Shown in pieces: positions 2,878-57,718 of a stretch of 64,000 bases of DNA (the stretch's first letter is position 1; the number at the start of each line of letters is the position of its first letter). This stretch comes from an uncultured Actinomycetes bacterium (lineage in GTDB: Bacteria > Actinomycetota > Coriobacteriia > Anaerosomatales > CAWKMJ01). Location: contig CAWKMJ010000002.1 in assembly GCA_963850695.1 (NCBI GenBank), forward strand, positions 78,810 through 142,809. Reading direction: 5' to 3'. The notes under the pieces were generated by a model. The model was not told the origin of the DNA and ran no database searches. It saw only the letters and a program-made list of their open reading frames with translations. The translations under genes were made by a program, and so were the position numbers.

Positions 2878-2930
2878 CTGCGATACACTACGCGCACTGT
2901 CGTGCGTAGCCGAGAGGGGCGTTCACCCAG

Positions 2931-4650
2931 GTGACAGAGGTGCTCGCGGGACTCATCAAACAGGCGCTTGCCGAGGCCGTCGAGGCGGGCGAGATCACAC
3001 TCGACGAGATCCCCGAACCGTATCTCGAGCGCCCGCGCGATCCCGACCACGGTGACTGGGCGACGAACGTGGCGATGCAGTCGGCCAAGGCCGCCAAGAT
3101 GCCTCCTCGGCAGATCGCCGAGATCATCGCGGCGCACATGGCGGGCCACGAAGACATCGACGCGGTCGAGATCGCAGGTCCCGGCTTCATCAACATCCGT
3201 CTGTCCCCGCGCGCCCTCCAAGGCGTGCTCGCCGAGATCCACGAGCAGCGTGGTGAGTACGGCCGCTCGACGATGGGTGACGGTCGCAAGGTGCAGGTCG
3301 AGTTCGTCTCGGCCAACCCGGTCGGTCCGATGCACGTCGGGCACGGGCGTTGGGCGGCGCTCGGCGACGGGATCGCGCGCGTTCTCGAGTACACCGGGCA
3401 CGAGGTCGAGCGCGAGTACTACATCAACGACGCCGGCGTCCAGATGGACATCTTCGGCGCGAGCGTCTCGGCTCGCTATCTGGAGCTGTGCGGCGAGACG
3501 GTCGAGTTCCCCGAGGACGGCTACCAGGGCGCCTACATCACGGAGATCGCGCGCGAGATCTTCGAGGAGGAGGGTGCCCGGTGGGCCGAGGCGCCTGCCG
3601 AGGAGCGCGAAGAGTACTTCCGGGAGAAGGCGTACCTCCAGGTGCTCGAGCATCTCGAGGCGCGTGCTGCACTCGATGGGCGTGGACTTCGATGTGTGGT
3701 TCTCCGAGCGCACGCTTCACGAGCGCGGGCCCGACGGTGAGCCCAGCCCGATCGAGCGCGGCATCGCGGCCCTGCGCGAGGCGGGCTACGTCTACGAGGA
3801 GGACGGCGCGATGTGGTTCCGCTCCACCGACTTCGGCGACGACAAGGACCGCGTGCTGAAGAAGGCCGACGGCTCGTACACGTACTTCGCGGCGGACGTC
3901 GCGTACCACGCCGACAAGTTCGATCGCGGCTTCGACGAGGTCATCGACTTGTGGGGCGCGGACCATCACGGCTACGTCAAGCGCATGGAGGCGGCGGTGG
4001 CCGCTCTTGGCTACGAGGGCCAGCTTGACGGTCGTCATCGGCCAGCTCGTGAACCTGTTCCGCGGCGGCGAGGTCGTGCGGATGTCGAAGCGCACCGGCG
4101 AGATGGTCACCTTCGAGGAGCTGCTCGAGGATGTCGGCACCGATGCGACCCGCTACTTCTTCCTGCGCCGCTCGACCGACCAGCCGCTCGACTTCGACAT
4201 CCAGCTTGCCAAGGAGCAGTCGAGCGAGAACCCCGTCTACTACGTCCAGTACGCGCACGCACGCATCTGCGCGATCCTGCGCAAGGCGGCCGGCGCCGAG
4301 ACCGACGACACGTCGGTGGACATGGCTGCGGCCGTCGCCGAGGTCGTCGTCGACCGATGCGCCGCTTGCACCTGCTCGACCGAGGAGTCGGAGCTGATCC
4401 CTCATGCGCAAGCTCGCCGAGTTCCCCGAGGTCGTCGAGGTGGCGGCCGCTCAGCTCGCGCCACACAAGCTCACGCGCTATGCCGAGGACCTGGCTGCCT
4501 CGTTCCACCAGTTCTACACGCAGTGCCGCGTCGTCGATCCCGATGAGCCGGAGCTCACCTCGGCCAGGCTCTACGCGGTCGATGCGACGCGGATCGTGCT
4601 CGCGACCGTGCTCGGCGCTCGTGGGAGTGAGCGCTCCCGAGCGGATGTAG
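2931..4650 (+). CDS. argS: Arginine--tRNA ligase, readable only across about four frame changes (near 3665, 4030, 4390, 4620)
   Basis: GTG 2931. [31 protein letters not shown] (HIGH-type motif), [27 protein letters not shown] (KMSK-type motif). DALR-type tail [17 protein letters not shown] ... [10 protein letters not shown] stop at 4650. Confidence 0.9.
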
Positions 4651-4697
4651 GTGCGGATCGCGGCGATCGGGATCCGGCCCGAGAGGCGAACCGCGTG

Positions 4698-4706
4698 TGT
4701 TAGCAT
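4698..4706 (+). promoter_or_regulatory. Candidate extended -10 promoter element TGtTAGCAT upstream of lysA
   Basis: TGnTAnnAT motif 56 nt upstream of ATG 4762. The same motif recurs upstream of rpmE, thyX, prfA and rpiB. No convincing -35. Confidence 0.35.
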
Positions 4707-4761
4707 CTACTAACTCACATGGAGCCCGAGCATCGGGCGAGCGACGAGAGGAGAGGTATCC

Positions 4762-6134
4762 ATGGGCAGGCCCGAGCACACCCAGACCACCGGCGGAGCC
4801 CGATCAGAAGACGGCACACGACCTCAAGTCCGTGCTGCCCAAGACCGCCGAGGTCAAGGATGGCCATCTGTGGATCGGCGGCGTCGACATGGTCGAGCTG
4901 GCACGTGAGGCCGGCACGGCGCTCTACGTCATGGACGAGGAGCACATCCGCCACCAGCTGCGCGAGTACGTGAAGTGGACGCGCTACCACTGGGAGGATG
5001 TCGACGTCATCTACGCGGGCAAGGCGTTCCTCTCGCTCGGCATGCTGCAGATCGTCGAGGAGGAAGGCTGCTCGCTGCTGTGTGCCGGCGGCGGGGAGCT
5101 CGCGTTCGCGCTGCGCGCTGGATTCCCGATGGAGCGCGTGCAGGTGCACGGCAACAACAAGACCGACTACGAGCTCGCCGAGTGCCTCGACGCCGGCGTG
5201 GGCCGCGTCGTCGTCGACTCCTTCTACGAGATGGACCGGCTCTCGGCGATGGCCGAGGAGCGCGGGACGACCCAGTCGATCCTCATCCGCGTCACGCCGG
5301 GCGTGAAGGCCGACACGCACGACTACATCCAGACCGGCCAGGAGGACTCGAAGTTCGGGTTCGGCATGGCCGACGGGTTCGCGCATGAACGCGGTGAAGC
5401 ACGCGCTCGAGCTTCCCGGCATCGACCTGGCCGGGCTGCACATGCACATCGGGTCGCAGATCTTCGCGCTGCACAGCTTCTCGCGCGGCGATCGAGGTCG
5501 TCGTCGAGTTCATGGAGACGATCAAGGCCGAGACGGGCTACATGGTGCGCGAGCTCGATACCGGAGGCGGCCTCGGGATCGCCTACGGCCTGCCCGACGA
5601 GCCGAGCACGATCAAGGACTACGGCAAGGTCATTGTCGACGGCATCAAGGACGAGATCGAGAAGCACGGTCTCGAGGTGCCCAAGATGATGGTGGAGCCG
5701 GGTCGCTCGATCGTCGCCAACGCCGGGGTCACGCTCTACACAGTGGGCTCGATCAAGGAGATCCCGGGCATCCGCACCTACGTGGCGGTCGACGGCGGCA
5801 TGTCCGACAACATCCGCACGTCGCTCTACGACGCCCACTACGAGGCGATCATCGCCAACAAGGCCGAGCAGCCCGCGCGAGATGGTGGCGACCGTCGCGG
5901 GCAAGCACTGCGAGAGCGGCGACATCGTCGTCAACGACGCTCCGCTCCAGCGCCCGGAGCCCGGCGACATCCTGTGCGTCTGCGCGACCGGCGCCTACTG
6001 CTTCTCGATGGCCTCCAACTACAACCAGCAGGTGCGTCCAGGCGTCGTGTTCGTGAGCGACGGGCGAGTGGCGCTGGACCGTGCGTCGCGAGACCTACGA
6101 CGATCTCATGAAGAACAACGTGCGGGTGGAGTAG
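4762..6134 (+). CDS. lysA: Diaminopimelate decarboxylase, about five frame changes
   Basis: ATG 4762 preceded by GAGAGGAGAGG. GHLWIGGVDMVELAREAGTALYVMDE, VIYAGKAFLS, LAGLHMHIGSQIF, LDTGGGLGIAY, VEPGRSIVANAG, GKHCESGD, ATGAYCFSMASNYN. Ends ...TYDDLMKNNVRVE stop 6132..6134. Confidence 0.9.
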
Positions 6135-42984: not shown

Positions 42985-44211
42985 CTAGCTCTCGCTCGCC
43001 GCATCTTCTAGCACGCCGAGGACGCGCGCGGCCATGTCGTCGCGGCCGAACTCGCGCTCGGCCAGGGCGCGGGCGTTGTCACCCATGCGTCGCAGCGCCT
43101 CGGGGTCATCGGCCAGCGCGACGATCGCATCCGCGAGCGCCTCACCGTCGCCCGGTGGCACGTAGACACCAGCGTCGTTGTCCTCGATCAGATCCTTGGT
43201 CCAGCCAGGGGAGTTGACGAGCATCGGCTTGCCGGTCGCGATCCCGTCGAAGAGCTTGTTGGGTGAGTTCGTGTAGAGGATCTCGACGTCCTTGAACAGC
43301 GTCATGAGCATGTCCGCGCTCCGCAGCAGCCGTGGGATCTCCTTCTTGGGGAGAGGGCCGATGAGATCGAGGTTGTCGAGGCCCCGCTCGTCACGCATGC
43401 GCTCGATCTGCGGCAGGGACTTCCCGTCACCCGCGATGAGGAAGACGATGTCGTCTCGGCCACGCTCTTTGAGGATGCGTGCGGCCTGGGGCACGGAGTC
43501 CTCGAGAGCGTTCGAGGGACCGATGGCGCCAGCGTAGCCCACGACGAACTTGCCCTCGAGCCCGAAGCGCTCGACGAGCTCCGGGTCCTTGGGGCCCGGG
43601 GCGAACAGCTCGAGATCGCACGAGTTGGGGACCATGTGCGTGCGCTCGGGGTCGCCGCCGTCGGCTAGGACGCCCGTGACCATGCCGGGGGAGAGCGCGA
43701 TCACAGCCGAGGCATGCCGATAGAGGAAGCGCTCGACTCGCTTGGCCACACGCGCGATGAAGCTGCCGCGCTTGAGAGCCCCCATCTGTATCGCCGCCTC
43801 AGGCCACAGATCGCGGACCTCGAAGACGAAGGGCAGTCTGCGCAGTGCGGCTGTGATCCAGCCGGGGACTCCGACCGTGAGCGGTGTGGAAGTCGCGAAG
43901 ACGACATCGGGGCGCGGGGCTCTGAGACCGAGGTACGCCGCGCCGAGCATGAACAGCGAGAAGGACCAGATGCGGCGAGCGTAGCCCATGTAGTTCGAGT
44001 ACGTGACCCGGACGGCCCGGACATCGATGCCGTCGACGGTACCGTAGTTGAAGACGTGCTCGGAGAACTCGTCGGTGAGCCGGGAGCTGCTCGTCACGAT
44101 CGTGACCTGGTGACCCTGTTCCACCCAGCGGCGAGAGAACTCGTATGAACGGATGAGTCCCAGCGACGACTCATGGGTGGCGAAGAACTGATGGAAGTAG
44201 AGGATTCTCAC
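42985..44211 (-). CDS. GT4-family glycosyltransferase (intact 408 aa)
   Basis: MRILYFHQFF...; N-terminal GT4 acceptor domain and C-terminal donor domain with LIAGDGK, NSPNKLFDGIATGKPML (E/K-x7-E-type region). Confidence 0.85.
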   Translation of the reverse strand: MRILYFHQFFATHESSLGLIRSYEFSRRWVEQGHQVTIVTSSSRLTDEFSEHVFNYGTVDGIDVRAVRVTYSNYMGYARRIWSFSLFMLGAAYLGLRAPRPDVVFATSTPLTVGVPGWITAALRRLPFVFEVRDLWPEAAIQMGALKRGSFIARVAKRVERFLYRHASAVIALSPGMVTGVLADGGDPERTHMVPNSCDLELFAPGPKDPELVERFGLEGKFVVGYAGAIGPSNALEDSVPQAARILKERGRDDIVFLIAGDGKSLPQIERMRDERGLDNLDLIGPLPKKEIPRLLRSADMLMTLFKDVEILYTNSPNKLFDGIATGKPMLVNSPGWTKDLIEDNDAGVYVPPGDGEALADAIVALADDPEALRRMGDNARALAEREFGRDDMAARVLGVLEDAASES

Positions 44212-44408
44212 GCGGTCGGGGTCTCCCAGCCGATGCGTCGTGCCTGGCAGTGATATGCGTCACACATCTCGTGCGCAAACATGCCGAATTCTACCATTGA
44301 GACGCACGTGGGGGCGTGTGCCGTGTGGCGCTCTACCCACTTCCCGGCGTGTCTTGTCCGGATGACTCAGCGGTGGCCTGCGGGAGGCCTGAGACAGGAG
44401 GGTTCGCC

Positions 44409-46184
44409 ATGGATAGACCTGGGGGTTCCACGCACGGCAGATCGGCGAGGGGGTTCGCACTTCTTCTCGTAATCATCTTGCTCGCTCTCGCGCTTCCGGT
44501 GTCCGCGGTCGGCACGGAGCCTGCGACGGTCACGCCGTACAACATCTCCGGCACGGTCGTCACCGACGACGCGAGTTCCACGCCGATTCCCGACATCAAG
44601 GTGAAGCTGTACTACGACAGCACGATCGTCGGCGGGGATCCGTCCTACATCTACACCTACACCGATGACGCTGGAGAGTGGGGTTTCGCCGACCTCGACG
44701 CCGGCAACTACGTCGTCTACTTCTACGACCCCAACTACAAGGACGGGGCCTACAAGAACGAGTACTACGACGACAAGGATGACTACGCGACCGCCGACCG
44801 CGTTGCATACGACGGCGGTACCAACGTGACCGGCGTCGATGCCGCGCTCACCGAGCTTCGGCGGGCCGTTGAAGGAACGGTCAAGTCCGAAGGTGGCGAA
44901 GGCATCAAGGACATGAAGGTCAAGCTCTACAAGTACACCGGCGGCACGACCGGTGACGCCTCCGTGCAGTGTGTCGGTTGGAGTGAGGTACAGGGTGCCT
45001 ACACCGACGCAAGCGGCTGGTATGCGTTCTACGGTGAGGAAGCCGGTCTCTATCGTGTGGGCGCCTACGACCCGAGGGACAATCACTACACCAAGTTCTA
45101 CGATGAGAAGCCCACACTCGATGATGCCACCGACATCTCCTACGATGGCACAGCCACCGTCTCGGGGATCGACCTGGCGCTCGAGCTCAAGACCAAAGAG
45201 GTCTGGGACAAGGACCGCTACACGACCGCGATCGACATCGCGCGCGAGGCCTACCCAGGCTGGCACGGTATCGACACGATCATCATCGCCTCTGGTGAGG
45301 ATCGCGCCTCGGCAGATCCTCTCGCCGCCTCCGGGATGTGCTGGGCCTATGACGCTCCGCTGTTCCTCGTGAGCAAGGATGGCCCGCCGTATGCGGTCAA
45401 GGAAGCGATCGCCGAGATCGTCGACGTGAACGGTCCCATCGACATGATCGTCGTTGGCGGACCCAAGTCCGTGCCCGACTGGGTGGCGGACAAGATCGAG
45501 AGCTACGTGGAGGGCAAGTTCGGTGGCGCTGACGTCATCACCGGCCCCGGCGGCACCTGGCGCCGCGTCGAAGGTCAGGACCGCTATGAGGTGGCCTACA
45601 AGATCGCCGACGAGATGGCGACCTGTGGCAAGTGGATGCCCGATGATGCGCTGATCGCGAACGGCGCAGACGCGAGCAAGTTCTTCGATGCTCTCGCGCT
45701 CTCGCCCGTCGCGCGCCGCAGGGGCGCACCGGTCCTGCTCGTGAGCAAGGACAAGGTGCCCAGCTGGACATCGGCGGCGATCGACAAGCACGGACTGAAC
45801 GACCTCTGGGTCGCTGGCGGAGACAACTCCGTTGGCCCCAAGGCCAAGGCCAAGCTCGGCGAGCTTGGGACCGTTCGCGCGGTATGGGCGGGCAAGGACC
45901 GCTATGAGACCGCTCGTCTGGTCGCCGAGGGCGCGCTCGATCAGGGCTGGCTCTCCAAGGATGCCGTGGCTGTCGCAGCCAAGCTGCCGGACGCCCTCAC
46001 GGGTGGTAGCGTGGTCGGGCATCGCAACGGTGTTCTGCTGCTTGTCGAGACGGACAAGTTGCCGAATCCCACGGGTGGGTATCTGGAGAACAACAAGGCA
46101 TCCATCGATGAGTGCTACATTTTTGGTGGACCGAAGAGCGTGAGCGCCAAGACTCGCGCCGCAGTCGAAGAGAAGCTGAAGTGA
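44409..46184 (+). CDS. Secreted wall protein: signal peptide, two ~100-aa beta-sandwich repeats (carboxypeptidase-regulatory/Cna-B-like), three CWB2-type wall-binding repeats (intact)
   Basis: ATG 44409 after AGGAGGG. FALLLVIILLALALPVSAVG. ISGTVVTDD...DAGNYVVYFY and EGTVKSEGG...EAGLYRVGAY. CWB2 units DKDRYTTAIDIAREAY...[14 protein letters not shown]...YDAPLFLVS...IVVGGPKSV; GQDRYEVAYKIA...ANGADASKFFDALALSP...APVLLVS; GKDRYETARLVA...AKLPDALTGGS...GVLLLV...IFGGPKSVS. Confidence 0.8.
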   Translation: MDRPGGSTHGRSARGFALLLVIILLALALPVSAVGTEPATVTPYNISGTVVTDDASSTPIPDIKVKLYYDSTIVGGDPSYIYTYTDDAGEWGFADLDAGNYVVYFYDPNYKDGAYKNEYYDDKDDYATADRVAYDGGTNVTGVDAALTELRRAVEGTVKSEGGEGIKDMKVKLYKYTGGTTGDASVQCVGWSEVQGAYTDASGWYAFYGEEAGLYRVGAYDPRDNHYTKFYDEKPTLDDATDISYDGTATVSGIDLALELKTKEVWDKDRYTTAIDIAREAYPGWHGIDTIIIASGEDRASADPLAASGMCWAYDAPLFLVSKDGPPYAVKEAIAEIVDVNGPIDMIVVGGPKSVPDWVADKIESYVEGKFGGADVITGPGGTWRRVEGQDRYEVAYKIADEMATCGKWMPDDALIANGADASKFFDALALSPVARRRGAPVLLVSKDKVPSWTSAAIDKHGLNDLWVAGGDNSVGPKAKAKLGELGTVRAVWAGKDRYETARLVAEGALDQGWLSKDAVAVAAKLPDALTGGSVVGHRNGVLLLVETDKLPNPTGGYLENNKASIDECYIFGGPKSVSAKTRAAVEEKLK

Positions 46185-46862
46185 CCGAAGGCGAACATAC
46201 CGACGACAGAACCCAGAAGCGGGGCGCGCAGAGCGTGCCCCGCTTCATCGTGGTCCTGGGCATAGTGGGGGTCGTGGCACTCGTCGCTGCGCTCGTTGCC
46301 GTCGTCGTCATGCAGGGTACGGGCTCTACTACTCAGACGTCGGTGGATGGGGCGGCTGAAGAGAGCAGCAGTGGGCCGGGAGCAGACGACTCCGGTGGAA
46401 CCGGTGCCGCAGAGGAGACGACTGGTGTGGGTGTCGGGCCGGGCGGTCCCTCTGCCGCCGAGCTGGCTGCGCAGTCCGCAGGTGATCTCGGCGCTCCCGC
46501 TGAGCTTTGCGGCGAGGGCGTGGAGCTGCCGGTTCTCGACGCGCCGCCCCCGTCCACGCTCGGACTGGTTGCACTGCCGGCGGGCTTCGAGGTCGCCGAG
46601 CTCGATGTCACCTTCTCTCCCTACGGTTGGGGCCAAGGCGGACCGGAGGGCTGCAACCTCGTGATCACGCGTCGCCACGGCGAAGCCCGCTTCCGGCGAC
46701 ACCGAGGGCTTGGAGGACATCTCCGGCATGAACGTGAGCGTGTGGACGGAGTGCGCACACGACGAGATTCTCAAGACAGGTGGCCAGTTCGCAGGTACAG
46801 TTGAGGTGCGCCGTCAGGGCAACGTCGGGCTTCTGTACCTGACAGAACTCTCGCGCAGCTGA
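46181..46862 (+). CDS. Single-pass membrane protein of unknown function, start coupled to the upstream stop (GTGA); one frame change near 46665
   Basis: GTG 46181. TM FIVVLGIVGVVALVAALVAVVV, Gly/Ser/Glu-rich linker, small C-terminal domain ...GMNVSVWTECAHDEILKTGGQFAGTVEVRRQGNVGLLYLTELSRS. Confidence 0.55.
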
Positions 46863-46867
46863 GTCAG

Positions 46868-46907
46868 CCCCCGCACCGGTTCTTCTGGCACGGTTCGTGC
46901 GGGGTTT
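46868..46907 (+). terminator. Rho-independent-type terminator hairpin
   Basis: CCCCGCAC...GTGCGGGG (8 bp, with inner ACCG/CGGT pairing) followed by TTT, 6 nt after the stop at 46862. Confidence 0.5.
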
Positions 46908-46976
46908 CAGTCGTCACGACCTCGTACCGATGTACTAGGGGATGGAAGCACTCCTCAAAAGGAGATAGAGAGCCGT

Positions 46977-49916
46977 ATGCGCATGGTCAGATTCGCCGTT
47001 TCGCTCGCCGTGGTCGTCGCGCTCGCGGCGACGATGACTCCGCTGGTCGCAGGTGGCGCCAAGGCGCAGAACAGCGTCGAGATCGAGCGTGTTTCACAGT
47101 CCGCCACACTCGACACGCGTCTCATCAGCTTGGAGGAGCGGGCCGACCTGGCGCGAAGCGAGGGCGAGCCGCTCCTGGCCGCCACCCCATCCGAGCCTTC
47201 CGACAGCCAGCCCGACTACGTGGCTGGCGAGGTACTTGTGAAGTACCGGGACCAGGACGCGCTCTCAGCCACCGTCCAGTCGCGCCTCCACGATCGCGCA
47301 GGTGGGACTCCTGGTGAGACGGTCGGCTCCGATGCCGACCGTACAGGTCGTGGAGCTCGACGGCGACGTCTCGGTCGAGGAAGGCGTCGACGCCTACGAG
47401 GCACAGCCCGAGGTCGAGTGGGCACAGCCCAACTACCTCTACGCACTCGCCGACACCACTCCTGGCGACACGATGTTCGGCTGGCTGGATGGCCAGCACA
47501 ACATCGGGCAGACCGGCGGCACCTCGGATGCCGACATCGACACCCCGGGGGCTTGGGACCTCGAGACAGGTGACGCGAGTGTGGTCGTCGCGGTCATCGA
47601 CACGGGAATCGACCCGACGCACCCCGACCTCGTCGGGCAACATCTGGTCGAACACCGGGGAGATCCCCGACAACAGCATCGACGACGACGTCAACGGCTA
47701 CGTGGACGACACGTACGGCTGGGACTTCGTCAACGACGACAACGCGCCGCATGGACGACCACAGCCACGGCACGCATGTCGCCGGGACGATAGGGGCTGT
47801 CGGCAACGACGGGCGTGGAGTGGCAGGCGTGGCATGGGACGTCTCGATCATGCCGATCAAGGCGCTTCGACCAGAACGGGAACAAGGCCAGTTCGGCGGC
47901 GCTCGTGGACGCTATCGACTACGCGAGCGACAACGGGGCGGACGTCATCAACGCGTCGTGGGGCGACTACGGACCGGTGGACACCGCGATCCGCAGCGCG
48001 ATCGCCTCGTCGCCAGCGCTGTTCGTGGCAGCAGCCGGGCAATCAACAGCCTGGCGAACAACGACGATGCACACCCGTTCTACCCGGCCGCCTACGACCT
48101 GGACAACATCATCGCTGTCGCCGCGACCGACAACAAGGACGCTCTCGCCAGCTTCTCGAACTACGGGGCGACGACAGTCGATGTGGCGGCTCCCGGCGTG
48201 GACATCCTCAGCACGGTGCCGCGCCTCGGCTACAGCGGGCAGTCGTTGGCCGATCCCGGCTGGGGAGACATCTTCTACGATCCGTTCCCCACCCAGGGTG
48301 GTTGGGCGACGACCGACTACAAGCACAAGCCATGGTCGCTGACCTCGACCAAGCCCGGCTCGTACTCCGGAGTGCCCGCGATCGCCAACAGGAACTACTC
48401 GGCGACCGAAGAGGCCTACCTCGACCTGAAGTACCCGGTAGACCTCTCTCAGTCCTCGGCTGCTGGCATCCTCTTCGACTTGGCGGCAAGCTTGGAGCCG
48501 GGATATGACTTCCTCGTCCCGATCGCTTCTGATGATGGAGGCAGTACCTGGGACCCGATCGAGAACGTCGCGTACACCGGAAGCACCGCGTCGGTGAAGC
48601 GGCTGGCCGACAACGATCGCTTCACGACAGCGGTCAAGATAGCGCGCGAGGGATACGACCCGGCCGGCAACAAGACGTGGCCCGGCGTCGACTCTGTGAT
48701 CATCGCGTCCGGCGATGACCGCGCGGCCGCAGACCCGCTGTCGGCTGCGGGGCTGTGCTGGGCCTACGACGCCCCGCTCTTCCTCGTCTCGGCATCGACG
48801 ACACCGGTCAAAGTGAAGGCCGCGATCAAGGAGATCGCAGCCCGCAACAGCGGCAAGGTGAACGTCATCATCGTCGGAGGCACGGTGAGCGTGCCCGACG
48901 CGCGCTACAGCGACCTCGCGAACTACGTGGGATGGAGCGAGCTTGCCAGACGACGCGTGGCGGGGTCGGACCGGTACTCCACGGCCGCAGCGATCGCTCG
49001 GGAGATGAGACGCGTGAAGGGCGCGACGGACAAGGTGCTCGTCGCCAACGGAGCCGACTCCACGAAGTTCTTCGACGCGCTCGCGCTCTCGCCGATCGCG
49101 GCACGCAACGGCTATCCGATCATCCCGGTGAGCGCCACGTCGGTTCCCTCGGCGAGCAGGTCGATACTGAGCGAGTTCGACCCGAGCGAGGTCATCATCG
49201 GCGGGGGACCGGCCACGGTGAAGTCGAGCGTCAAGAGCAGCATCAAGAGCATCACCGGCGTCACACCACAGCAGTGGTACGGACCCGATCGCTACTACAC
49301 CGCGACGACGATCGCGACGAAGTCGGTGTCCCGCGGATTCCTTTCGGATCAGGCGGTCGGGATCGCAGCCAAGCTGCCCGACGCGCTGACCGGTGGAAGC
49401 ATGATCGGCGCGCAGAACGGCGTGCTGCTCATCACACAGAGCGATCGGCTGACCGGGACGACGAGCGCCTGGGTGTCCTCGCACTCATCCAAGATCGGAT
49501 CGGCCTACGTCTTTGGTGGCACGAAGAGCGTGTACCCAGCCGTCCAGAATCGAGTGACAGGGCTCGTGGCGCTCTGGGTGACTGAGTACTTGAACCTGAA
49601 GGACTACATCGGCAAGGCGAGCGTCAAGATCGCGTTCGTGCTGGTCTCAGATGAGACGGACAACTACGACGGCGTCTTCATAGACGACGTCGAGATCGTC
49701 TCCTTCGGGGGCTACGGGCTCAACAACGGGACATCCATGGCGGCACCGCATGTGGCCGGAGTGGCGGCGCTGCTCAAGTCGCGCGACGCGAGTCTCGAGG
49801 CGACTGAGACCAAGCAGGTCATCATCGATACGGTCGACACGAAGTCGAGTCTTGCTGGAAAGGTGGAATCCGGCGGACGTGTGAATGCGAACAGCGCGGT
49901 GACTGCTGTACCCTAG
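46977..49916 (+). CDS. Secreted subtilisin-family (S8) serine protease with a nested jelly-roll plus 3x CWB2 insertion between the His/Asn region and the catalytic Ser; about five frame changes confined to 47290-48060
   Basis: Signal peptide MRMVRFAVSLAVVVALAATMTPLVAGGAKA. Inhibitor-I9-like propeptide YVAGEVLVKYRD...VEWAQPNYLY. Asp VVVAVIDTGID, His DDHSHGTHVAGTIG, DVINASWG, FSNYGATTVDVAAPG, then about 490 aa (SDDGGSTWDP..., three CWB2 units, ...YDGVFIDDVEIV) before Ser NNGTSMAAPHVAGVAALL. Confidence 0.85.
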
Positions 49917-49955
49917 AGCGGAAGTCACCCGTGACGCGAGGGGGTAGATGGCAAA

Positions 49956-51648
49956 GTGAGACACGCAAAGCCGCTCGTGGCGTGCGTTCTGGCGGCGGCG
50001 CTGCTGCTGTCGATGCCGGTATCGATCGGTGCCGTGACGTGGCCGGATGGCTCCCCCAAGGTCAAGGTTGCGCGCGACCGTGTCTACGGCTCGGACCGCT
50101 ACGCAACCTCAGTCAAGATCGCGGCTGCGGCGTTTCCTGGTTGGGCAGGCGTCGACCACGTGATCATCGCCTCGGGCGAGGATCGTGCCGCGGCCGACCC
50201 GCTGACCGCTGCCTCTCTCTGCTGGGCGTATGACGCCCCGCTGCTGCTCACTCAGTCCAAGACCCTTCCCTCGTCGGTTCGCTCGACGCTCAAGGAGATC
50301 GCCGCGGTCAATCCCGGCGTCAAGGTGATCATCGTCGGCGGCGGAGTCTCGGTGCCGCGGTCGCTCGAGAAGGAGATCAAGTCCGCCATCGGGCCGAGCG
50401 GAGCAGTCGAGCGCCCATGGGCCTCAGGAGACCGCTTCTCGCTTGCGGCAGGTATCGCGTCGCGAGTGAGGCAGGTCGCTGCCGATACGAGCCGCACGAT
50501 ACCGAGCGCCGTGCTCGTGGCCAACGGTGCCGATGTCGATACGTTCTTCGACGCGCTCTCGGCCTCGGCCGTCTCGGCCAACACCGGCGTGCCGGTGCTG
50601 CTTGCAGGCCGAGATGAAGTGCCGGCGGTCACCGCCACGTACATCAAGGCGACGGCTCCCGCTGAGACCATTCTGGTGGGTGGCCCCACGACCATGTCCT
50701 GGGATGTCCAGCGCAAGCTCCCCGGGACCGAGCGTCTCCACGGCGCCGACCGCTACGCGACGTCTATCGCCGTGGCGGAGGCGGCCGATGCCCGCGGGTG
50801 GGCCGATCCGGCGACCACGTGTCTTGCCGGCGCGCTTCCCGATGCGGTCTCAGGAGCGATCCTCGCCGCCAAGAACAGCGGCCCTCTCGTCATCGTCCCC
50901 AAGGACACGCTGCGCGGTTCCATCGCGAACTACCTGGCCAGCGATTCGATCGGCGTGACGAAGGCCATCGTCCTCGGAGGCTCGGCAAGCGTGTCGAACG
51001 GGCTCTACGGTGAGCTCGGAGGCAACCCCGGCATCCCGCAGATCACCTCGTTCAAGAACGTGGCCACGAAGAGAGCTCCCATGAAGGCCAGGGCGGGCGT
51101 GAACACCACGACGCTCAAGCTCTACGTGGACGGCAAGTACGTCGCCACCAAGTCGGCCAAGCCCTACACCGAGGTGGACTTCGGCAAGGTCTGGCTCGCC
51201 AAGGACATGACCGAGGTCAAGATCGTCGCCAGCAACCCTGATGACGCGACATCGACGATGAAGCGCAAGGTGAAGCGGCTCGACTACCCGGCATCGACCA
51301 GCATCGTGATCGACAAGTCGGACTTCAAGCTCTACTGGATCAAGAACGATGTTCTCGTGAAGGCCTACCCGATCGCCCACGGGCGAGTCGGCGCCAGCAC
51401 GCCGGAGCGCACCTGGAAGATCGGCGCCAAGTACCACAGCAGCGGAGTGTACGGTCCGCGCAAGATGCGGCTGTTCGCCAAGTCCGGCTCTGGCTACACG
51501 TACTCGCGCCTACCTCATCCACGGCACGAACCAGGAGTGGGTCATCGGCACGCGCGCCTCGGCGGGTTGCATCCGCATGTACAACAAGGACGTACTCGAG
51601 CTGTTCCCGCAGGTACCGCTGGGTACACCGGTGGTGACGCGCCAGTAG
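49956..51648 (+). CDS. Secreted L,D-transpeptidase (YkuD domain) with N-terminal 3x CWB2 module and a middle beta-domain; one frame change near 51500
   Basis: GTG 49956. Signal peptide [23 protein letters not shown]2 units [12 protein letters not shown]...[14 protein letters not shown]...YDAPLLLT; [12 protein letters not shown]...[16 protein letters not shown]...VPVLLAG; [12 protein letters not shown]...[11 protein letters not shown]...GPLVIV. C-terminus [27 protein letters not shown]...[29 protein letters not shown]. Stop 51646..51648. Confidence 0.85.
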
Positions 51649-51776
51649 CCATGACCCCGGGGGTCGCTTTCCCCGTGATGACCTGAGTTACCATGGCACC
51701 TGGCCTCGCCGATACTGGAAGGCTGTCAACGGTGGTGAATCGTAGCAGTACGTCGCAGCAGTACCGCCTGAAGGCG

Positions 51777-53423
51777 ATGCGCATGTCCTTGGCGCTCGTT
51801 CTCGCTCTCCCCATCCTTCTCGCGCTCCCTGCTCTTGCGTGCGCAGAACCCATCAAGCCCGCGGCCCTGCGCATCACGATCGATCCCGGTCACGGTGGTG
51901 GCTACTCGGGAGCCGTCTACGGCGGCACCTCCGAGAAGGCGCTCAACCTCCAGATCGCCAAGAGGCTCGCCACCGAGCTCAAGCGTCGGGGTCACAGAGT
52001 CGACATGACGCGCTGGACCGACTCGTATGTCTACTCCGGCGGCACGGTGCCCACATGGCGCTGGGTCGACTCGCTCGATCGCTACAAGTACGACAGCTGG
52101 CCCGTGAACACCGCCACCGACCGGCTGCGCCGCGATCTCCAGTCGCGCTGCGATCGCGCCAACGCCAACGGGGCCGACCTCTTCGTCTCGATCCACAACA
52201 ACGCTGGCGGCAGCGCCTCCGGTGCCGAGACATACCGGGCGCCGCAGGACCCGCTCGGCCAGAGGTTCGCAAGCGATGTGCAGGCCGAGCTCATCTCGGA
52301 GACCGGTGCCCGCAGCAGAGGCGTGTTCGCCGAGAACTTCTACGTCATCCGCTGGTCGAACATGCCGGCCGTGCTCGTGGAGTGCGGCTTCATGTCCAAC
52401 TCCTCCGAGCTCTCCCGGCTGCGTTCGAGCTCGTATCAGGCGACGGTCGCCCGCGGCATCGCTGATGGCATCGACCGGTTCGCCAAACGCGAGTTCGACG
52501 AGTCCTTCGACCGGATATGGGGTGCCGATCGCTACTCCACAGCTGCTCAAGTGGCGCGCTCGGGCTGGGCTACGCCGACCGTCGCGTTCTTGTCCTCTGG
52601 GGAGACGTTCGCCGATAGCCTGGTCGCCGGTCCCTACGCGACTCAGCTCGACGCTCCGATCCTGCTCACGGCGGCTGGCCATCTCCCTGGGCCGACGGCG
52701 AGCGCGCTCAAGGATCTTGCGCCCGACCGAATCGTCGTCGTGGGGGGTCCGCGTTCGGTCCCCGACGCCATCGCACGCCAGGCAGCCCAGGCCGCCGGCA
52801 TCGATCCGGCCGCTCCGGGCGCGATCACGCGCTTTGGTGGGAGCACCCGCTACGACGTGGCGCTCGCCATCGCCGAGGAGATGGGGATCGCCGATGACGC
52901 ACCTGTCATCGTCGCATCCGGCGAGGTCTTCCCCGACGCGCTCAGCATCTCGGCATATGCGGCCGAGAACGCCCAGCCGATTCTGCTCGTGAGCTCGAAG
53001 AAGATGTCGGGGGGCATCCGCTCCTACATCTCGCGGGGCGAGCGCGACATGACCGTGGTGGGTGGCCCGGCCACCATCCCGGAGCAGGTGCTCGACGGTT
53101 TCGAGTACGAGCGTCTGGCCGGCTCCAATCGGTACTCGACGAACTGGGCCGTCTTCGCCAACAAGTACGAGGCCGAGGACCACGTCCGCCCGATGATCGC
53201 GTCGGCAGAAGTCTTCCCCGACGCACTGGTGCTCGGGCCGTATGCAGCCAAACAGGGACGCCCGATCATCCTCATGGGCAAGTCCGCCTGCTCCACGAGT
53301 CTCAGGCCCTGGGTCTACAACAACCGGGAGGCCGAGCTCGATGTGGACGTGGTCGGAGGCCCCGCGTCGGTGTCGGCCTATGTTTCACAGATGTTCGAGA
53401 AGTGGCGGATGAACCAGCACTAG
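51777..53423 (+). CDS. Secreted N-acetylmuramoyl-L-alanine amidase (Amidase_3) with C-terminal 3x CWB2 module (intact; LytC-like but with reversed domain order)
   Basis: ATG 51777/51783. Signal peptide MSLALVLALPILLALPALACA. ITIDPGHGGGYSGA, ALNLQIAKRL, DLFVSIHNNAGG, YVIRWSNMPAVLVECGFMSN. CWB2 units GADRYSTAAQVA...SSGETFADSLVAGP...APILLT; GSTRYDVALAIA...ASGEVFPDALSIS...QPILLV; GSNRYSTNWAVF...SAEVFPDALVLGP...RPIILM. Confidence 0.88.
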   Translation: MRMSLALVLALPILLALPALACAEPIKPAALRITIDPGHGGGYSGAVYGGTSEKALNLQIAKRLATELKRRGHRVDMTRWTDSYVYSGGTVPTWRWVDSLDRYKYDSWPVNTATDRLRRDLQSRCDRANANGADLFVSIHNNAGGSASGAETYRAPQDPLGQRFASDVQAELISETGARSRGVFAENFYVIRWSNMPAVLVECGFMSNSSELSRLRSSSYQATVARGIADGIDRFAKREFDESFDRIWGADRYSTAAQVARSGWATPTVAFLSSGETFADSLVAGPYATQLDAPILLTAAGHLPGPTASALKDLAPDRIVVVGGPRSVPDAIARQAAQAAGIDPAAPGAITRFGGSTRYDVALAIAEEMGIADDAPVIVASGEVFPDALSISAYAAENAQPILLVSSKKMSGGIRSYISRGERDMTVVGGPATIPEQVLDGFEYERLAGSNRYSTNWAVFANKYEAEDHVRPMIASAEVFPDALVLGPYAAKQGRPIILMGKSACSTSLRPWVYNNREAELDVDVVGGPASVSAYVSQMFEKWRMNQH

Positions 53424-53441
53424 GGAACCGCGCGACCCTCG

Positions 53442-54677
53442 CTACTCGATGACCGATTCGTAGACCTCGGCAACGCGCTCCGTCGTGCGTCCAAGATCGT
53501 ACTCTTCCGCTCGTGCTGCTCCCACCTCGATGAGCCGAGCGGCGAACTCGGGCTCGGTGAGGACTCGGGTGATCGCACGGCCGAGCGCTGCCACGTCCCC
53601 CGGATCCACGAGCTCGCCCGCGCCGCCGCGCAGCAGGTTGGGGATCCCGCCGATGCACGAGGCCACGACGGGCGTGCCGGATGCCAGTGCCTCGATGATC
53701 GAGCGCGGCTGACCCTCTCGCAGATGAGAGGGGAGCACGAAGACATCGGCCGAGGAGAGCGTGTCGACGACACCATCGGGTCCCAGGTCGCCGAGAAGCT
53801 CGCAGGATCCCGCGTCGAGCCCTGCTTCCCGCGCAAGCGATTCGACGTCGAGATCGACGACGGGGCCAGCCAGCACGAGATGGGCGTTGGGTACGCTGGC
53901 AAGGACGGACACCATGGCCCGTAGCAGGTCCTCGACGCCCTTGCCAGCAGCGATGCGCCCGATGTAGGCGACTGTGGCCGGGCTCGATCCCGTTGCTGCG
54001 GACCCGCGGCTCTCGACATCGGAGGTCGACCGCATCGCAGCGCCGAACCGCCCCAGATCCACGCCGTTGGGTATCACCGTGGGCTCGAGGCCGGGGACGC
54101 GCGCGGACAGCCCATCGGCGACATCCGTGCTCACCGCTATGACAGCGTCCATCTCGGCCAGGTTCTCGATCACCAAGTCGCCGAGTGCTTGTGGCGCGTC
54201 GTCGGCGAACGCGGAGAGGCTGTGCTGGGTCGCCACGCTCGGCAGCGAGGTGATGCCGGCCATGCGGCCGTAGAGCACGCGCATGTCGGGTTGGTGGTAG
54301 TGGACGACGTCGGGTCGGTGGCCCTGGACGGCTCGCGACAACCCGAGCACCTGGGCGAACGTGGGCCCGAACCGCTTGTCCTGCGCCTCGGCCAGCCCCA
54401 TGAGCGACCGCGTGCTGCTCACCAGGGAAGCGTTGCCAAGAGCCGCCATCGCCCCGCCGAGTGACTTCGACAGCGGTGTCGCCGAGTAGACATCGCCCCA
54501 CTCCTCGGCGATCGGCTCGTCGGTCGGAGGCATGTTGTCCGCGTAGACTGCGACGTCGTGGCCTGCCGAGGAGAGTCCCTCGGCGAGCTCGAGAACGTGG
54601 GTGGCGATACCGCCGGTGCTGCGTGAGCCCATGTGTCCGGGAAGCGGACCGACGATCAGGATGCGTCGCGCGCTCAC
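53442..54677 (-). CDS. GT4-family glycosyltransferase (intact 411 aa)
   Basis: MSARRILIVGPLPGHMGSRSTGGIATHVLELAEGL...; C-terminal LVLAGPV..., LPSHLREGQPRSIIEALASGTPVVAS (E-x7-E region). Lies 7 nt downstream of wzx on the same strand. Confidence 0.85.
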   Translation of the reverse strand: MSARRILIVGPLPGHMGSRSTGGIATHVLELAEGLSSAGHDVAVYADNMPPTDEPIAEEWGDVYSATPLSKSLGGAMAALGNASLVSSTRSLMGLAEAQDKRFGPTFAQVLGLSRAVQGHRPDVVHYHQPDMRVLYGRMAGITSLPSVATQHSLSAFADDAPQALGDLVIENLAEMDAVIAVSTDVADGLSARVPGLEPTVIPNGVDLGRFGAAMRSTSDVESRGSAATGSSPATVAYIGRIAAGKGVEDLLRAMVSVLASVPNAHLVLAGPVVDLDVESLAREAGLDAGSCELLGDLGPDGVVDTLSSADVFVLPSHLREGQPRSIIEALASGTPVVASCIGGIPNLLRGGAGELVDPGDVAALGRAITRVLTEPEFAARLIEVGAARAEEYDLGRTTERVAEVYESVIE

Positions 54678-54684
54678 GTGTGGA

Positions 54685-56352
54685 TCACTCCCCGGGTTGA
54701 GGCGGGTCGGACTCGGGCGGAAGCTCGGTCTCGCTCGGCTCCTCGGCGTGCTCGTCGCTGGCGGCGCGCGTGGGGTGCTTCATGCGGCGCGTGAGGCCCG
54801 CGACGATCTCGCGGGCGTAGTGCAGCTCGTCGCGACGGACTCCACCGAGCAGCAGCAGCGCGATGATGTAGACCGTCAGCCCGACGAAGACGGCTGCGAC
54901 GAGCAGCAGCATCGGGTGGGCGGTGACGTAGCTCGCCAGACTCAGCACGGCGGCCATGATGAGCGAGGCGGCCGTGATGCGCAGCAGCGCGTTCCACGGG
55001 ACGAGCCAGGGCATGTAGGCGCGGCTCCTGAACCAGGTGAGGGCCAGGAGCAGGAAGTAGGAGAGCACAGTCGTCACACCGGCGGCGGCGTACCCGTACT
55101 CGGGGATCAGCACGGCGTTCGCCCCGATGTTGAAGGCCGCTGCAAGCAGCGTGTTCTGCATGATGATCTGCGACTTCTTGTGAAGCCCGAGGCCGGTGCC
55201 TGCCAGCTGCGCGAACCCGGAGAACATGGCGGCGGCGGCCACGAACGGCAGCACGACCGCTGCGGGCCAGTACTCGGACGCGGTGAACGCTCGCATGAAG
55301 AGCCCGGATGTGGCAGCCATGCCGGCCAGCAGCGGGAAGGTCACCATCGCCGCGTAGCGCGTGAACTGCGACTGGACCTTCTCGGCCATCGCTTGAGTGC
55401 GCTTCTCGTAGGTCTCCATGAGCACGGGCGTCATCGTCATGATGAGCGGGAGCGTGACGAGCTGCATGAGCTTCTCGCCGAGTCCATAGGCCACCGAGTA
55501 GAGGCCGACCTCGGTCGCTCCGCGGAAGAACTGGATCATGTATCGGTCAGCCAGCACGAGCACCCAGGAAGAGACGCCCACAGGGATGAGCGGGACTCCG
55601 TAGGAGAGGAACTCGCCAAGCAGCGGACGGCTGTAGTTGCCGGGCGTGAGCGAGCCCTCACGGCTCACAGCTCGGAGCCCAAGCGGCAGCAGCACCAGGT
55701 TGCCGATGGCCACGCCGAGCAGGATGCCGAGCGATCCCATCTCCATCGGCCACACGAAGATGATCGAGAGGGTGGTCGTGAGCACGGTGTTGGCCACGGA
55801 CAGCTTGGCGAACGAGGAAGCGCGGTTGGCCGCGCGCAGCACCTGCAGCAACAGGCTCATGATGTAGTGGAAGAAGAAGTAGGCGATGCCGGCGGGCACG
55901 AGGCGGGCAAGCCCCTCCTCGATCTGGCCTTGGAGCAGCAGCGCACCGGCTGCAACGAGCACGCCTGCGCCCGTCAGCGCGACCAGCGCGCTCCACAGCA
56001 CCGTCGAGATGTACTCGTTGGTGCGCCCCTCCCTCTCGGTCGCCCAGTAGAAGCGCACCGCCGAAGAGGACAGCCATGCCGTGACGATGCTTGCCACGAA
56101 CGTGGCCGCCGAGGTGACGAGGTAGAAGTAGCCGTAGTCCTCCGCGCCGATCAGGCGCGTGAACAGCGGCACGGTGATCAGCGATGTGAGCGCCGGGATG
56201 AACCGGACGGGGAAGTACTTCAGGGCGTCGGAACCCGCGCCTCGAAGGATTCGTTTGAGGATGCTCTCGCCGAGGTCGCCGTCGTCAGCGCCCCTCTCGG
56301 CAGGTCTCTCCTCCTCGTGCCCCTGCTGTCCGGATGAACTCTCGGCCGCCAT
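54685..56352 (-). CDS. MOP-superfamily polysaccharide flippase (Wzx-like), intact 555 aa
   Basis: Acidic N-terminus, then about 14 hydrophobic segments (FIPALTSLITVPLFTRLIGAEDYGYFYLV ...). Typical oligosaccharide-flippase length and topology. Confidence 0.8.
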   Translation of the reverse strand: MAAESSSGQQGHEEERPAERGADDGDLGESILKRILRGAGSDALKYFPVRFIPALTSLITVPLFTRLIGAEDYGYFYLVTSAATFVASIVTAWLSSSAVRFYWATEREGRTNEYISTVLWSALVALTGAGVLVAAGALLLQGQIEEGLARLVPAGIAYFFFHYIMSLLLQVLRAANRASSFAKLSVANTVLTTTLSIIFVWPMEMGSLGILLGVAIGNLVLLPLGLRAVSREGSLTPGNYSRPLLGEFLSYGVPLIPVGVSSWVLVLADRYMIQFFRGATEVGLYSVAYGLGEKLMQLVTLPLIMTMTPVLMETYEKRTQAMAEKVQSQFTRYAAMVTFPLLAGMAATSGLFMRAFTASEYWPAAVVLPFVAAAAMFSGFAQLAGTGLGLHKKSQIIMQNTLLAAAFNIGANAVLIPEYGYAAAGVTTVLSYFLLLALTWFRSRAYMPWLVPWNALLRITAASLIMAAVLSLASYVTAHPMLLLVAAVFVGLTVYIIALLLLGGVRRDELHYAREIVAGLTRRMKHPTRAASDEHAEEPSETELPPESDPPQPGE

Positions 56353-56471
56353 GGACCTCCTCAGTCTCGGCGCACCGCGTCGGAAGCTATTCTATTATGG
56401 TCGTTCGTGGGCGGTCGCGTCTCGTTCGCGCTGTTGCCGAGATGACACGCGGCTGCAACCTGCGACGACGT

Positions 56472-56486
56472 ACACTGTTCCAGTGT
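56472..56486. promoter_or_regulatory. Inverted repeat ACACTG-TTC-CAGTGT in the divergent wzx / GT4 intergenic region (candidate operator)
   Basis: Perfect 6-bp arms read directly, inside the 187-bp divergent region 56353..56539, which also has an AT-rich TATTAT at about 56389. Confidence 0.3.
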
Positions 56487-56539
56487 TGCGAGAGCGCGCC
56501 TTGCCGATGCGGGCGCTCGGGAACGTAGAGAGGCTCTTC

Positions 56540-57718
56540 GTGCGCATAGGCATGCTACTCATGGGCGGGACCTACCCGCCTGACATACGCGTGGAGAAGG
56601 AGGCTCGTGTGCTCGCCGAGGCGGGCCATGAGGTCTACCTCCTCACATCCGACAAGGACGGCCGTCCTGCCGAGGAGCCCATGCCCCCGCTCACCGTCTA
56701 TCGCTACGTGCATCGGGGATCGCGTGTGCGTTCGAAGGCCGAGGCCGCAGTGACGCTTGCCACCTGGCGCAACCTGGGCTGGAAGCGCGCCATCGACTCG
56801 TTCGTGCGCGATGCGGGAGTAGATGCACTCCACGTCCACGATCTGCCCGCCGTCAAAGTGGGCGTCGAGGTGGCTCGCAGCGCCGGGATCCCCGTGGTCT
56901 TCGACATGCACGAGAACTATCCGGCTGCGGTGTCCTTCTGGAAGCGCAGCACCGCGGCTCGGCTCGCGCAGACGCCCGCGCGCTATCGCGACTACGAGCG
57001 CTGGGCCGTGAACGCCGTCGACCGCGTGGTCTGTGTGGTGGACGAGGCGGCCGAGCGCGTGCGCGGACTTGGCGTGCCGCCTGAGCGGATCGTGGTGTTC
57101 GGCAACGTGGATGACTGCACCCAGGGCGGCACGTGGCAGGGGACCGACCACGCGCTCACGGTCGCCTATGCGGGCGGCTTCGGACCGCATCGCGGGATCG
57201 ACACGCTCGTGCGCGCTTTCGCCAAGGTCCACAGTCGCGATCACCACGCCCGCCTCGTACTGATGGGCGCTGGCGATGGCGAGAGCGAGCTGCGCGAACT
57301 CGTCGTCGCTCACGGACTGCGTGGGTGCGTCGAGTTCACCGGCTGGGTCGGCGACGCGACCATGCGCGCCAACCTTGCCGAGGCCACCATCGGTACGGTG
57401 CCGCACGCCAAGAACGAGCACACTGACTCGACCGTGCCGCACAAGCTGTTCCAGTACATGTGCATCGGCCTGCCGGTCGTCGTGACCGATTGCGCGCCTC
57501 TCGCTCGCATCGTCGAGGAGACGGATGCGGGACGCGTGGCGATCGCAGGCGATGACAACTCGCTTGCCGAGGCGATCCTCGAGCTGGCCGACCCCGAAGC
57601 CGCACGGGCGGCATCGGATGCCGGGCGCGCCGCCGTCGCGGAGCGGTACTCGCTCGGCCACGAGGGACGTGTGCTCGCAGGGATGTACGCAGAGTTGGGC
57701 AAGGAGTCGGACCTGTGA
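56540..57718 (+). CDS. GT4-family glycosyltransferase (intact)
   Basis: GTG 56540 after GAGAGG (ORF opens at 56159). VRIGMLLMGGTYPPDIRVEKEARVLAEAGHEV..., LVLMGAGDGE, HKLFQYMCIGLPVVVTD. Confidence 0.85.
   Translation: MRIGMLLMGGTYPPDIRVEKEARVLAEAGHEVYLLTSDKDGRPAEEPMPPLTVYRYVHRGSRVRSKAEAAVTLATWRNLGWKRAIDSFVRDAGVDALHVHDLPAVKVGVEVARSAGIPVVFDMHENYPAAVSFWKRSTAARLAQTPARYRDYERWAVNAVDRVVCVVDEAAERVRGLGVPPERIVVFGNVDDCTQGGTWQGTDHALTVAYAGGFGPHRGIDTLVRAFAKVHSRDHHARLVLMGAGDGESELRELVVAHGLRGCVEFTGWVGDATMRANLAEATIGTVPHAKNEHTDSTVPHKLFQYMCIGLPVVVTDCAPLARIVEETDAGRVAIAGDDNSLAEAILELADPEAARAASDAGRAAVAERYSLGHEGRVLAGMYAELGKESDL

Follow-up and report, generated by a model that had tools for sequence, protein, structure and literature searches.

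The closest described counterparts of the cell-wall module considered here are Cwp6, Cwp8, SlpA and Cwp84 of Clostridioides difficile, the last a cysteine protease, which share a module of three CWB2 repeats. In this family the triplet lies at the N- or C-terminus, binds the polymer PSII in a manner that requires all three repeats, and conserves a P[ILV][ILV][LV] motif in each repeat, and its genes also adjoin those for wall-polymer synthesis, in the cwp/AP locus (PMC4973711). The trimer is intertwined, with a strand of repeat 1 completing the sheet of repeat 3, as described for SlpA (PMC8881574). Here we describe an S8 (subtilase) protease gene in a 64,000-nucleotide stretch of contig CAWKMJ010000002.1 (positions 78,810 to 142,809; hereafter the window) from an uncultured Actinomycetes bacterium of the Anaerosomatales. 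Its product carries a CWB2 triplet with the same predicted fold, placed internally and two levels deep: inside a MAM-like domain that itself interrupts the S8 catalytic domain. The bacterium differs from C. difficile in phylum and in guanine-cytosine (GC) content.

Insertions of related form are known from other systems. Subtilases with an inserted protease-associated (PA) domain likewise carry a whole domain between the His/Asn region and the catalytic Ser (PMC5177683). Those are single-level insertions, whereas the insert described here is a predicted MAM-like sandwich with two levels, and a Pfam search of the protein gave no match to the PA domain PF02225 at E <= 1. Nested insertions of the type A1-B1-C-B2-A2, as in ndhH and cyanobacterial RNA polymerase, have the same formal topology, and nesting has been documented up to six levels (PMC13114784). 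Surveyed inserts are usually smaller than their hosts, about 133 versus 241 residues (PMC13114784). Unlike these, the present protein places a 326-residue, three-domain module in a host of about 170 residues, and the resulting composite of about 495 residues in a catalytic domain of about 300. The supplements of that survey mention neither CWB2 nor S8. What is new is the architectural arrangement of the known families S8, MAM-like and CWB2; nested insertions as such are known.

The nearest match in composition is a group of C-terminally anchored proteases (P0009, P0010, P0012, P0013, P0363, P0374 and P0376; 940-978 residues), mostly from Actinomycetota/Coriobacteriia metagenome bins, which have the same domain inventory and nearly the same length. 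In these the MAM-like domain is unbroken and the triplet follows the S8 domain via a short linker; they share 37-47% identity with the nested proteins. The closest solved catalytic domains are deseasin MCP-01 (3vv3), fervidolysin (1r6v) and thermitase (1thm), and the prodomain is likewise of the fervidolysin type. The phmmer and Foldseek matches of these structures are confined to the S8 part ahead of the insertion point, and the phmmer and Foldseek core searches returned no solved structure matching the inserted segment.

After correction of its frameshifts, the nested gene encodes a protein that aligns end to end with two metagenome proteins of 977 and 975 residues (P0001 and P0002). The chain runs from a predicted signal peptide through a fervidolysin-type prodomain, the N-terminal part of the S8 domain, the first half of the MAM-like domain, three CWB2 repeats and the second MAM-like half to the C-terminal part of the S8 domain (Table 1). 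Pfam recognized Peptidase_S8 (PF00082) at 180.3 bits, against a cut-off of 21.8, in two stretches, residues 202-415 and the C-terminal end; CW_binding_2 (PF04122) at 133 bits in three tandem stretches; the prodomain (PF22148, Fervidolysin_NPro-like) N-terminal of S8 at 48.1 bits, against a cut-off of 21; and InhA-like_MAM (PF20773) at 27.1 bits over residues 858-908, the C-terminal flank of the insert. NCBIfam matches were to generic S8 and SlpA-like models only.

The Asp-His-Ser triad occurs in S8 order, with the DTG, HGTH and GTSMA motifs all present, and the same motifs occur in P0001 and P0002. The Asp motif VIDTGID spans residues 207-213 (nucleotides 47593-47613; Asp210 at 47602-47604), the His motif HGTHVAG residues 265-271 (from nucleotide 47766; His265 at 47766-47768), INASWG residues 326-331, the APG strand FSNYGATTVDVAAPG residues 394-408, and the Ser motif GTSMAAPHVAG residues 919-929 (Ser921 at 49734-49736). 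In the flanks of the triplet, WGDIFYDPF begins at nucleotide 48261, SDDGGSTWDP ends at 48557 and WVTEYL...VFIDDVEIV covers 49575-49700. Because 512 residues separate the APG strand from the Ser motif, against about 17 in insert-free relatives, the insert amounts to about 495 residues. The initial annotation of this stretch, made from the sequence alone, had located all of these motifs correctly.

That the two flanks belong to one domain, as the same annotation had proposed, is borne out by an alignment of the loop, made with 11 homologues and later with 72. The flanks correspond to two halves of a domain that is contiguous in all the others: the N-half matches the first approximately 110 residues of the uninterrupted domain and the C-half matches its last strands. 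The CWB2 triplet, with its three units lying between the halves as annotated, is the sole extra material in the nested clade, between ...YTGSTAS and LWVTEYL..., and the insertion site corresponds in the 72 uninterrupted homologues to a conserved hairpin, ...(S/T)G(S/D)(S/T)GG followed by W/F.... When residues 541-866 were removed in silico, a single PF20773 match extended over the junction (profile positions 53-162, 31.6 bits). By comparison, the MAM-like halves alone scored 14.1 and 18.6 bits, and the naturally uninterrupted protein P0043 scored 31.9 bits. Taken at the level of sequence, the double nesting of a CWB2 triplet in a MAM-like domain in an S8 domain is real. The annotation had likened the split domain to choice-of-anchor-J and MAM-like domains; the MAM-like assignment stands through PF20773, while choice-of-anchor J fell away, with no NCBIfam match at E <= 1.

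The two levels of nesting differ in how common they are. Grouped by their order of domains, most of the 120 top-ranking database homologues consisted of the N-terminal S8 part, a MAM-like domain of about 160 residues and the C-terminal S8 part. A MAM-like domain just before the catalytic Ser is thus common in this S8 subfamily and not special to the protein described here. Wherever homologues in this set carry CWB2 repeats, the repeats follow the C-terminal S8 part, except in P0001, P0002 and the fragment P0006, which alone have the nested order. When P0001 was searched exhaustively with HMMER against 1.84 billion cluster representatives, a single match was collinear over the full length, namely P0002, the representative of the nested clade; P0006 came up as a fragment. 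CWB2 repeats lay between the two S8 parts in none of the 131 other top representatives in the HMMER listing, 24 of which carry CWB2 at the C-terminus; a nested relative with these domains at an identity of at least 40% would score high enough to be listed. No further nested locus turned up in species-representative genomes or JGI metagenome contigs, whose scans gave only non-nested relatives or nothing. In the sequences searched, the nested architecture was found only in one narrow bacterial lineage. The earlier view that a wall anchor nested two levels deep is unusual stands; the first level, the MAM-like domain within S8, is common.

Other elaborations occur among the relatives. A large group of proteins of about 1175 residues (P0016, P0018-P0022, P0026-P0036 and others) has two tandem MAM-like domains before the catalytic Ser, then further domains and a C-terminal CWB2 triplet. 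P0003, P0004 and P0005 (1471-1478 residues) contain three complete tandem S8 catalytic domains, and P0360-P0362 (3000-3400 residues) show 6-11 separate stretches matching the query.

Orthologues with the same architecture, which the initial annotation had suggested looking for, were found in independent data. The nested order occurs in four assemblies from four samples: the window contig, contig_34440 of ENA ERZ25039603 (locus L002), JGI 3300040737 (locus L001) and JGI 3300042731 (P0002). The two JGI metagenome proteins P0001 and P0002 are intact, 78% identical and collinear over residues 1-977 and 1-975. The junction peptides are conserved as YTGSTA[SA]V[KE]RLAD and TGLVA[LV]WVTEYL. Gene order in L001 and L002 is that of the window: GT4, CarboxypepD_reg-like-CWB2, a small open reading frame (ORF), the nested S8 gene, CWB2-YkuD and Amidase_3-CWB2. 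P0002 lies on a 3.9-kb contig on which two short flanking ORFs are seen. Relative to L001, the ratio of nonsynonymous to synonymous substitution rates (dN/dS) is 0.20 for the MAM-like N-half, 0.10 for the triplet, 0.22 for the MAM-like C-half and 0.17 for the C-terminal S8 part; these values, between 0.10 and 0.22, indicate purifying selection on every part of the nest.

The inserted piece comprises an entire CWB2 module of the terminal type; it starts with the first strand, VKRLADNDRF, and extends to the residue that is the natural C-terminus in other proteins. The triplets most similar to it sit at the C-terminus of other proteins: P0121 at 68% identity, P0122 at 64% and P0123-P0126 at 57-59%. 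The inserted piece is less like the triplets of its locus neighbours (41-53%) and those of the C-terminally anchored S8 paralogues with a MAM-like domain (about 44%), which are thus farther from it than the unrelated P0121 and P0122. We propose a single origin, in which such a module would have been placed into the MAM-like loop of an S8 ancestor that already carried the MAM-like domain. The triplet may have been captured from another gene. Alternatively, it may be the protein's own C-terminal triplet, relocated by duplication followed by permutation or deletion; its extent up to the natural C-terminal residue fits such a relocation, while its greater distance from the triplets of the S8 paralogues speaks against it.

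P0121 and P0122 were considered as possible fragments of nested genes and rejected, as both end at the natural C-terminus of the module; P0121, moreover, lies behind another S8 gene, one that lacks the MAM-like domain (locus L003). In L003 (2-1468) this S8 domain and the triplet P0121 share one reading frame and are parted only by a TAG codon (GYG*GAMNPVAA), which may reflect a sequencing error or be a genuine stop or a site of read-through.

Structure prediction supports the individual parts. With AlphaFold, each domain was folded confidently, although coverage of all domains was never good in one and the same run. Based on an alignment rich in CWB2 sequences, residues 541-866 reached a predicted local distance difference test score (pLDDT) above 95. 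With this region, Foldseek retrieved Cwp6 (5j72) at an E-value of 1.7e-21 and a root-mean-square deviation of 3.1 A over 337 columns, followed by the SlpA SLPH structure 7acy_B (TM score 0.74) and Cwp8 (5j6q). In the models, the triplet is the trimeric triangular-prism fold of Cwp6, Cwp8 and SlpA. An alignment deep in S8 and MAM-like sequences gave pLDDT values of 82-98 for the S8 core, including 93-98 for residues 920-980 after the insert, which contain the Ser helix; the prodomain reached 84-95. The MAM-like halves were predicted as eleven strands, eight before the insert (pLDDT 58-92) and three after it (pLDDT 80-91). Foldseek matched the S8 core to deseasin 3vv3 (E 6e-23), fervidolysin 1r6v (E 7.5e-18) and thermitase; since Foldseek does not bridge the insert of about 500 residues, these matches are silent on closure of the S8 fold. 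The core search returned S8 structures only, with no match of the MAM-like segment to a solved MAM domain.

Table 1. Features of the nested protease gene and of the surrounding locus (window positions).
Feature	Position	Strand	Basis or remark
Nested S8 protease gene	46977..49916	+	ATG 46977, stop 49914-49916; about 980 residues once frameshifts are corrected (frames stitched)
Predicted Sec signal peptide MRMVRFAVSLAVVVALAATMTPLVAGGAKA	46977..47066	+	inferred by eye from the sequence
Fervidolysin-type N-terminal prodomain, residues 73-153	47193..47433	+	PF22148; spans the first frameshift
Stretch with five frame changes	47333..48060	+	comparison with orthologous DNA of L001 and L002
S8 catalytic domain, N-part, residues 185-415	47527..48218	+	PF00082 over residues 202-415; pLDDT 82-96
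Predicted MAM-like beta-sandwich, N-half, residues 416-540, ending ...NVAYTGSTAS	48219..48593	+	alignment to homologues; PF20773 positions 53-97
Complete CWB2 triplet, residues 541-866 (326 residues)	48594..49571	+	PF04122, three stretches
CWB2 repeats 1/2/3	roughly 48594-48938 / 48948-49259 / 49269-49571	+	PF04122
Predicted MAM-like beta-sandwich, C-half, residues 867-911, LWVTEYLNL...VFIDDVEIVSF	49572..49706	+	PF20773 positions 113-162
S8 catalytic domain, C-part, residues 912-980, with catalytic Ser921	49707..49913	+	second PF00082 stretch; pLDDT 93-98
Surrounding locus	42985..57718	.	same gene order in L001 and L002
GT4	42985-44211	-
CarboxypepD_reg-like + CWB2x3	44316-46184
Small ORF	46112-46804	+	no Pfam family match; conserved, about 200-230 residues; L001 4193-4789, L002 8466-9146
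CWB2x3 + YkuD	49956-~51650		frameshifted
Amidase_3 + CWB2x3	51693-53423
GT4	53442-54677	-
Polysacc_synt flippase	54685-56352	-
GT4	56159-57718

Based on these comparisons, we consider it likely that the gene encodes a secreted S8 protease of the fervidolysin/thermitase type, held on the cell surface by its CWB2 trimer in the nested architecture, and hence probably a wall-tethered extracellular protease of a Coriobacteriia-related bacterium. Once the protein has been exported and its prodomain removed, the trimer would bind a secondary cell-wall polymer, as CWB2 modules do in C. difficile, and this polymer would, by homology, be made by the products of the neighbouring glycosyltransferase and flippase genes. 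Because the first strand of repeat 1 belongs to the sheet of repeat 3, the trimer should form a closed, intertwined ring whose ends lie near each other, and it would hence be able to sit in a loop; the ends of inserted domains are usually close, at a median of 14 A (PMC13114784). As a likely result, the active enzyme could not be freed from its anchor by cutting any one linker, and the MAM-like domain would serve as a rigid connector between the anchor and the active site.

Several observations weigh against this proposal. Wall binding, its ligand and protease activity are inferred only by homology. No close non-nested sister of the nested clade was found, and the nearest triplets, P0121 and P0122, come from other proteins. 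The PF20773 score of the native protein is marginal, 27.1 bits against a cut-off of 26.9, and the Pro of the P[ILV][ILV][LV] motif is missing from CWB2 repeat 3 (APLFLV in repeat 1, YPIIPV in repeat 2, GVLLIT in repeat 3). Each AlphaFold run had one poorly covered region (predicted template modelling scores of 0.52 and 0.54), and the support from the models consists of per-segment pLDDT and strand calls rather than of contacts between the halves, packing of the Ser segment or the distance between the ends of the insert. Furthermore, the oxyanion-hole Asn of the window copy falls in its damaged stretch, and the frameshifts there could be real. The module is internal (residues 541-866 of 980) and nested in another domain, neither N- nor C-terminal; this position is an unusual feature and no reason to doubt its identity as CWB2.

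Among the alternatives, the first concerns the state of the window copy. A single ORF covers only position 48045 to the stop at 49916; it includes the whole insertion, through which the reading frame is continuous, as initially annotated. Upstream, the gene is broken over several frames, and the call for a corrected protein was well placed, with five frame changes in the first third of the gene. The frame follows the course 0>1>2>0>1>0 between about 47330 and 48050, and comparison with the orthologous DNA of L001 and L002 shows one surplus base at each of 47333, 47633, 47752 and 47875 and, at 48042-48060, a complex insertion-deletion (indel). The last contains the oxyanion-hole Asn (AAAGN, about 48037-48045): the window reads AAAGQ/N... 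where the orthologues read AAAGNN. The window copy could thus be a true pseudogene, in which real mutations have cost this bacterium a protease that its relatives make, and the clustering of five frame changes in about 730 nucleotides, against zero in the next 1870, is odd for random error. We nevertheless judge this reading unlikely. A frame plot of GC content at third codon positions shows a frame switch every 300-600 nucleotides across 2.8-43 kb (for example 2821-4651, frames 0>1>2>0), and the adjacent CWB2-YkuD gene (from 49956) is also shifted at 51480-51700, losing its frame just before the catalytic HG...SAGCIRM motif. L002 has other lesions in the nested gene, and both JGI copies are intact. 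Once corrected, the stretch has no stops, keeps all motifs, is 79-83% identical to the intact orthologues, the level found between those orthologues, and has a dN/dS of 0.13, compared with 0.14 for the remaining gene. Given the window-wide frame switching, the shift in the YkuD gene, the different lesions of L002 and the orthologue-like identity and dN/dS, the frameshifts most probably arose as errors of the sequencing consensus. The assembly has the appearance of a long-read consensus that was not polished; with many indel errors in the assembly behind the window, ORF-based annotation of the contig will be badly fragmented.

Two further ideas concern the role of the insert. In the first, binding of the wall polymer by the CWB2 trimer would be mechanically coupled, via the split MAM-like domain, to the loop ahead of the catalytic-Ser helix, so that the protease would be fully active or correctly folded only when docked on the wall and, in addition, could not be shed, by its own action or that of another protease, without being destroyed. 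We regard this coupling as speculative and hold it with low confidence; if true, it would be a natural insertion-based allosteric switch in an extracellular enzyme. In the second, the trimer would not be mainly an anchor and would act either as a lattice tile in an S-layer-like array or as a polymer sensor that switches the protease via the MAM-like domain. CWB2 trimers tile the S-layer of C. difficile (PMC8881574), published work indicates that in engineered domain insertions the activity of the host often becomes coupled to that of the insert, and the present insertion enters the S8 chain about 10 residues before the catalytic Ser. Against this, paralogues with this set of domains and a C-terminal anchor are frequent, a pattern that points to simple anchoring, and no S-layer protein was recognized among the genes of the locus. 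We therefore consider either role quite improbable.

Finally, the possibility that the nesting is an assembly chimera, with a CWB2 segment of a paralogous gene spliced into the protease gene, as the initial annotation had cautioned, draws on the three further CWB2-triplet genes within 6 kb and the error-prone assembly, yet it is extremely unlikely and effectively refuted by the intact orthologues of the same order in independent assemblies: the same junctions occur in all four, two of them JGI metagenomes; similarity among the paralogous CWB2 genes in the window is limited to stretches of no more than 110 nucleotides with 66-78% nucleotide identity, too little to mislead an assembler; and the inserted triplet, under purifying selection as noted, is 84-86% identical to the inserts of its orthologues, compared with about 41-53% to the triplets of its neighbours.

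The surrounding locus combines wall-polymer genes (GT4 glycosyltransferases, a flippase and a sugar dehydrogenase) with four CWB2 enzymes, namely the protease, an L,D-transpeptidase, an amidase and the CarboxypepD_reg-like protein, and thereby parallels the C. difficile arrangement. The small ORF stands directly upstream of the nested gene in all three loci; in the window copy, a Gly/Ala/Ser-rich region comes after a hydrophobic segment at the N-terminus. In L002, a second S8 protease gene (positions 2328-5264) lies some 4 kb upstream of the nested one; its product, P0009, has a MAM-like domain and carries its CWB2 triplet at the C-terminus. Both architectures thus coexist in one genome. No paralogue of the P0009 type was found in the window, and the window gave no hits in tRNA and Rfam scans. 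The adjacent GT4 is 100% identical to P0240, and its named relatives (65-71% identity) are metagenome-assembled genomes labelled Coriobacteriia, Coriobacteriales or Anaerosomatales, labels that many of the CWB2 matches carry too.

The locus documents a cwp-like mixture of CWB2 enzyme and wall-polymer genes in high-GC Coriobacteriia-related bacteria, outside the Firmicutes. CWB2 modules have been described as terminal, swappable anchors; here the module is internal, lies in a domain embedded in the catalytic domain, and is about twice as large as its host. The protein therefore offers a natural test case for the tolerance of large multi-domain inserts in loops, for surface tethering from which an enzyme would not be released, and for coupling between anchor and catalysis.

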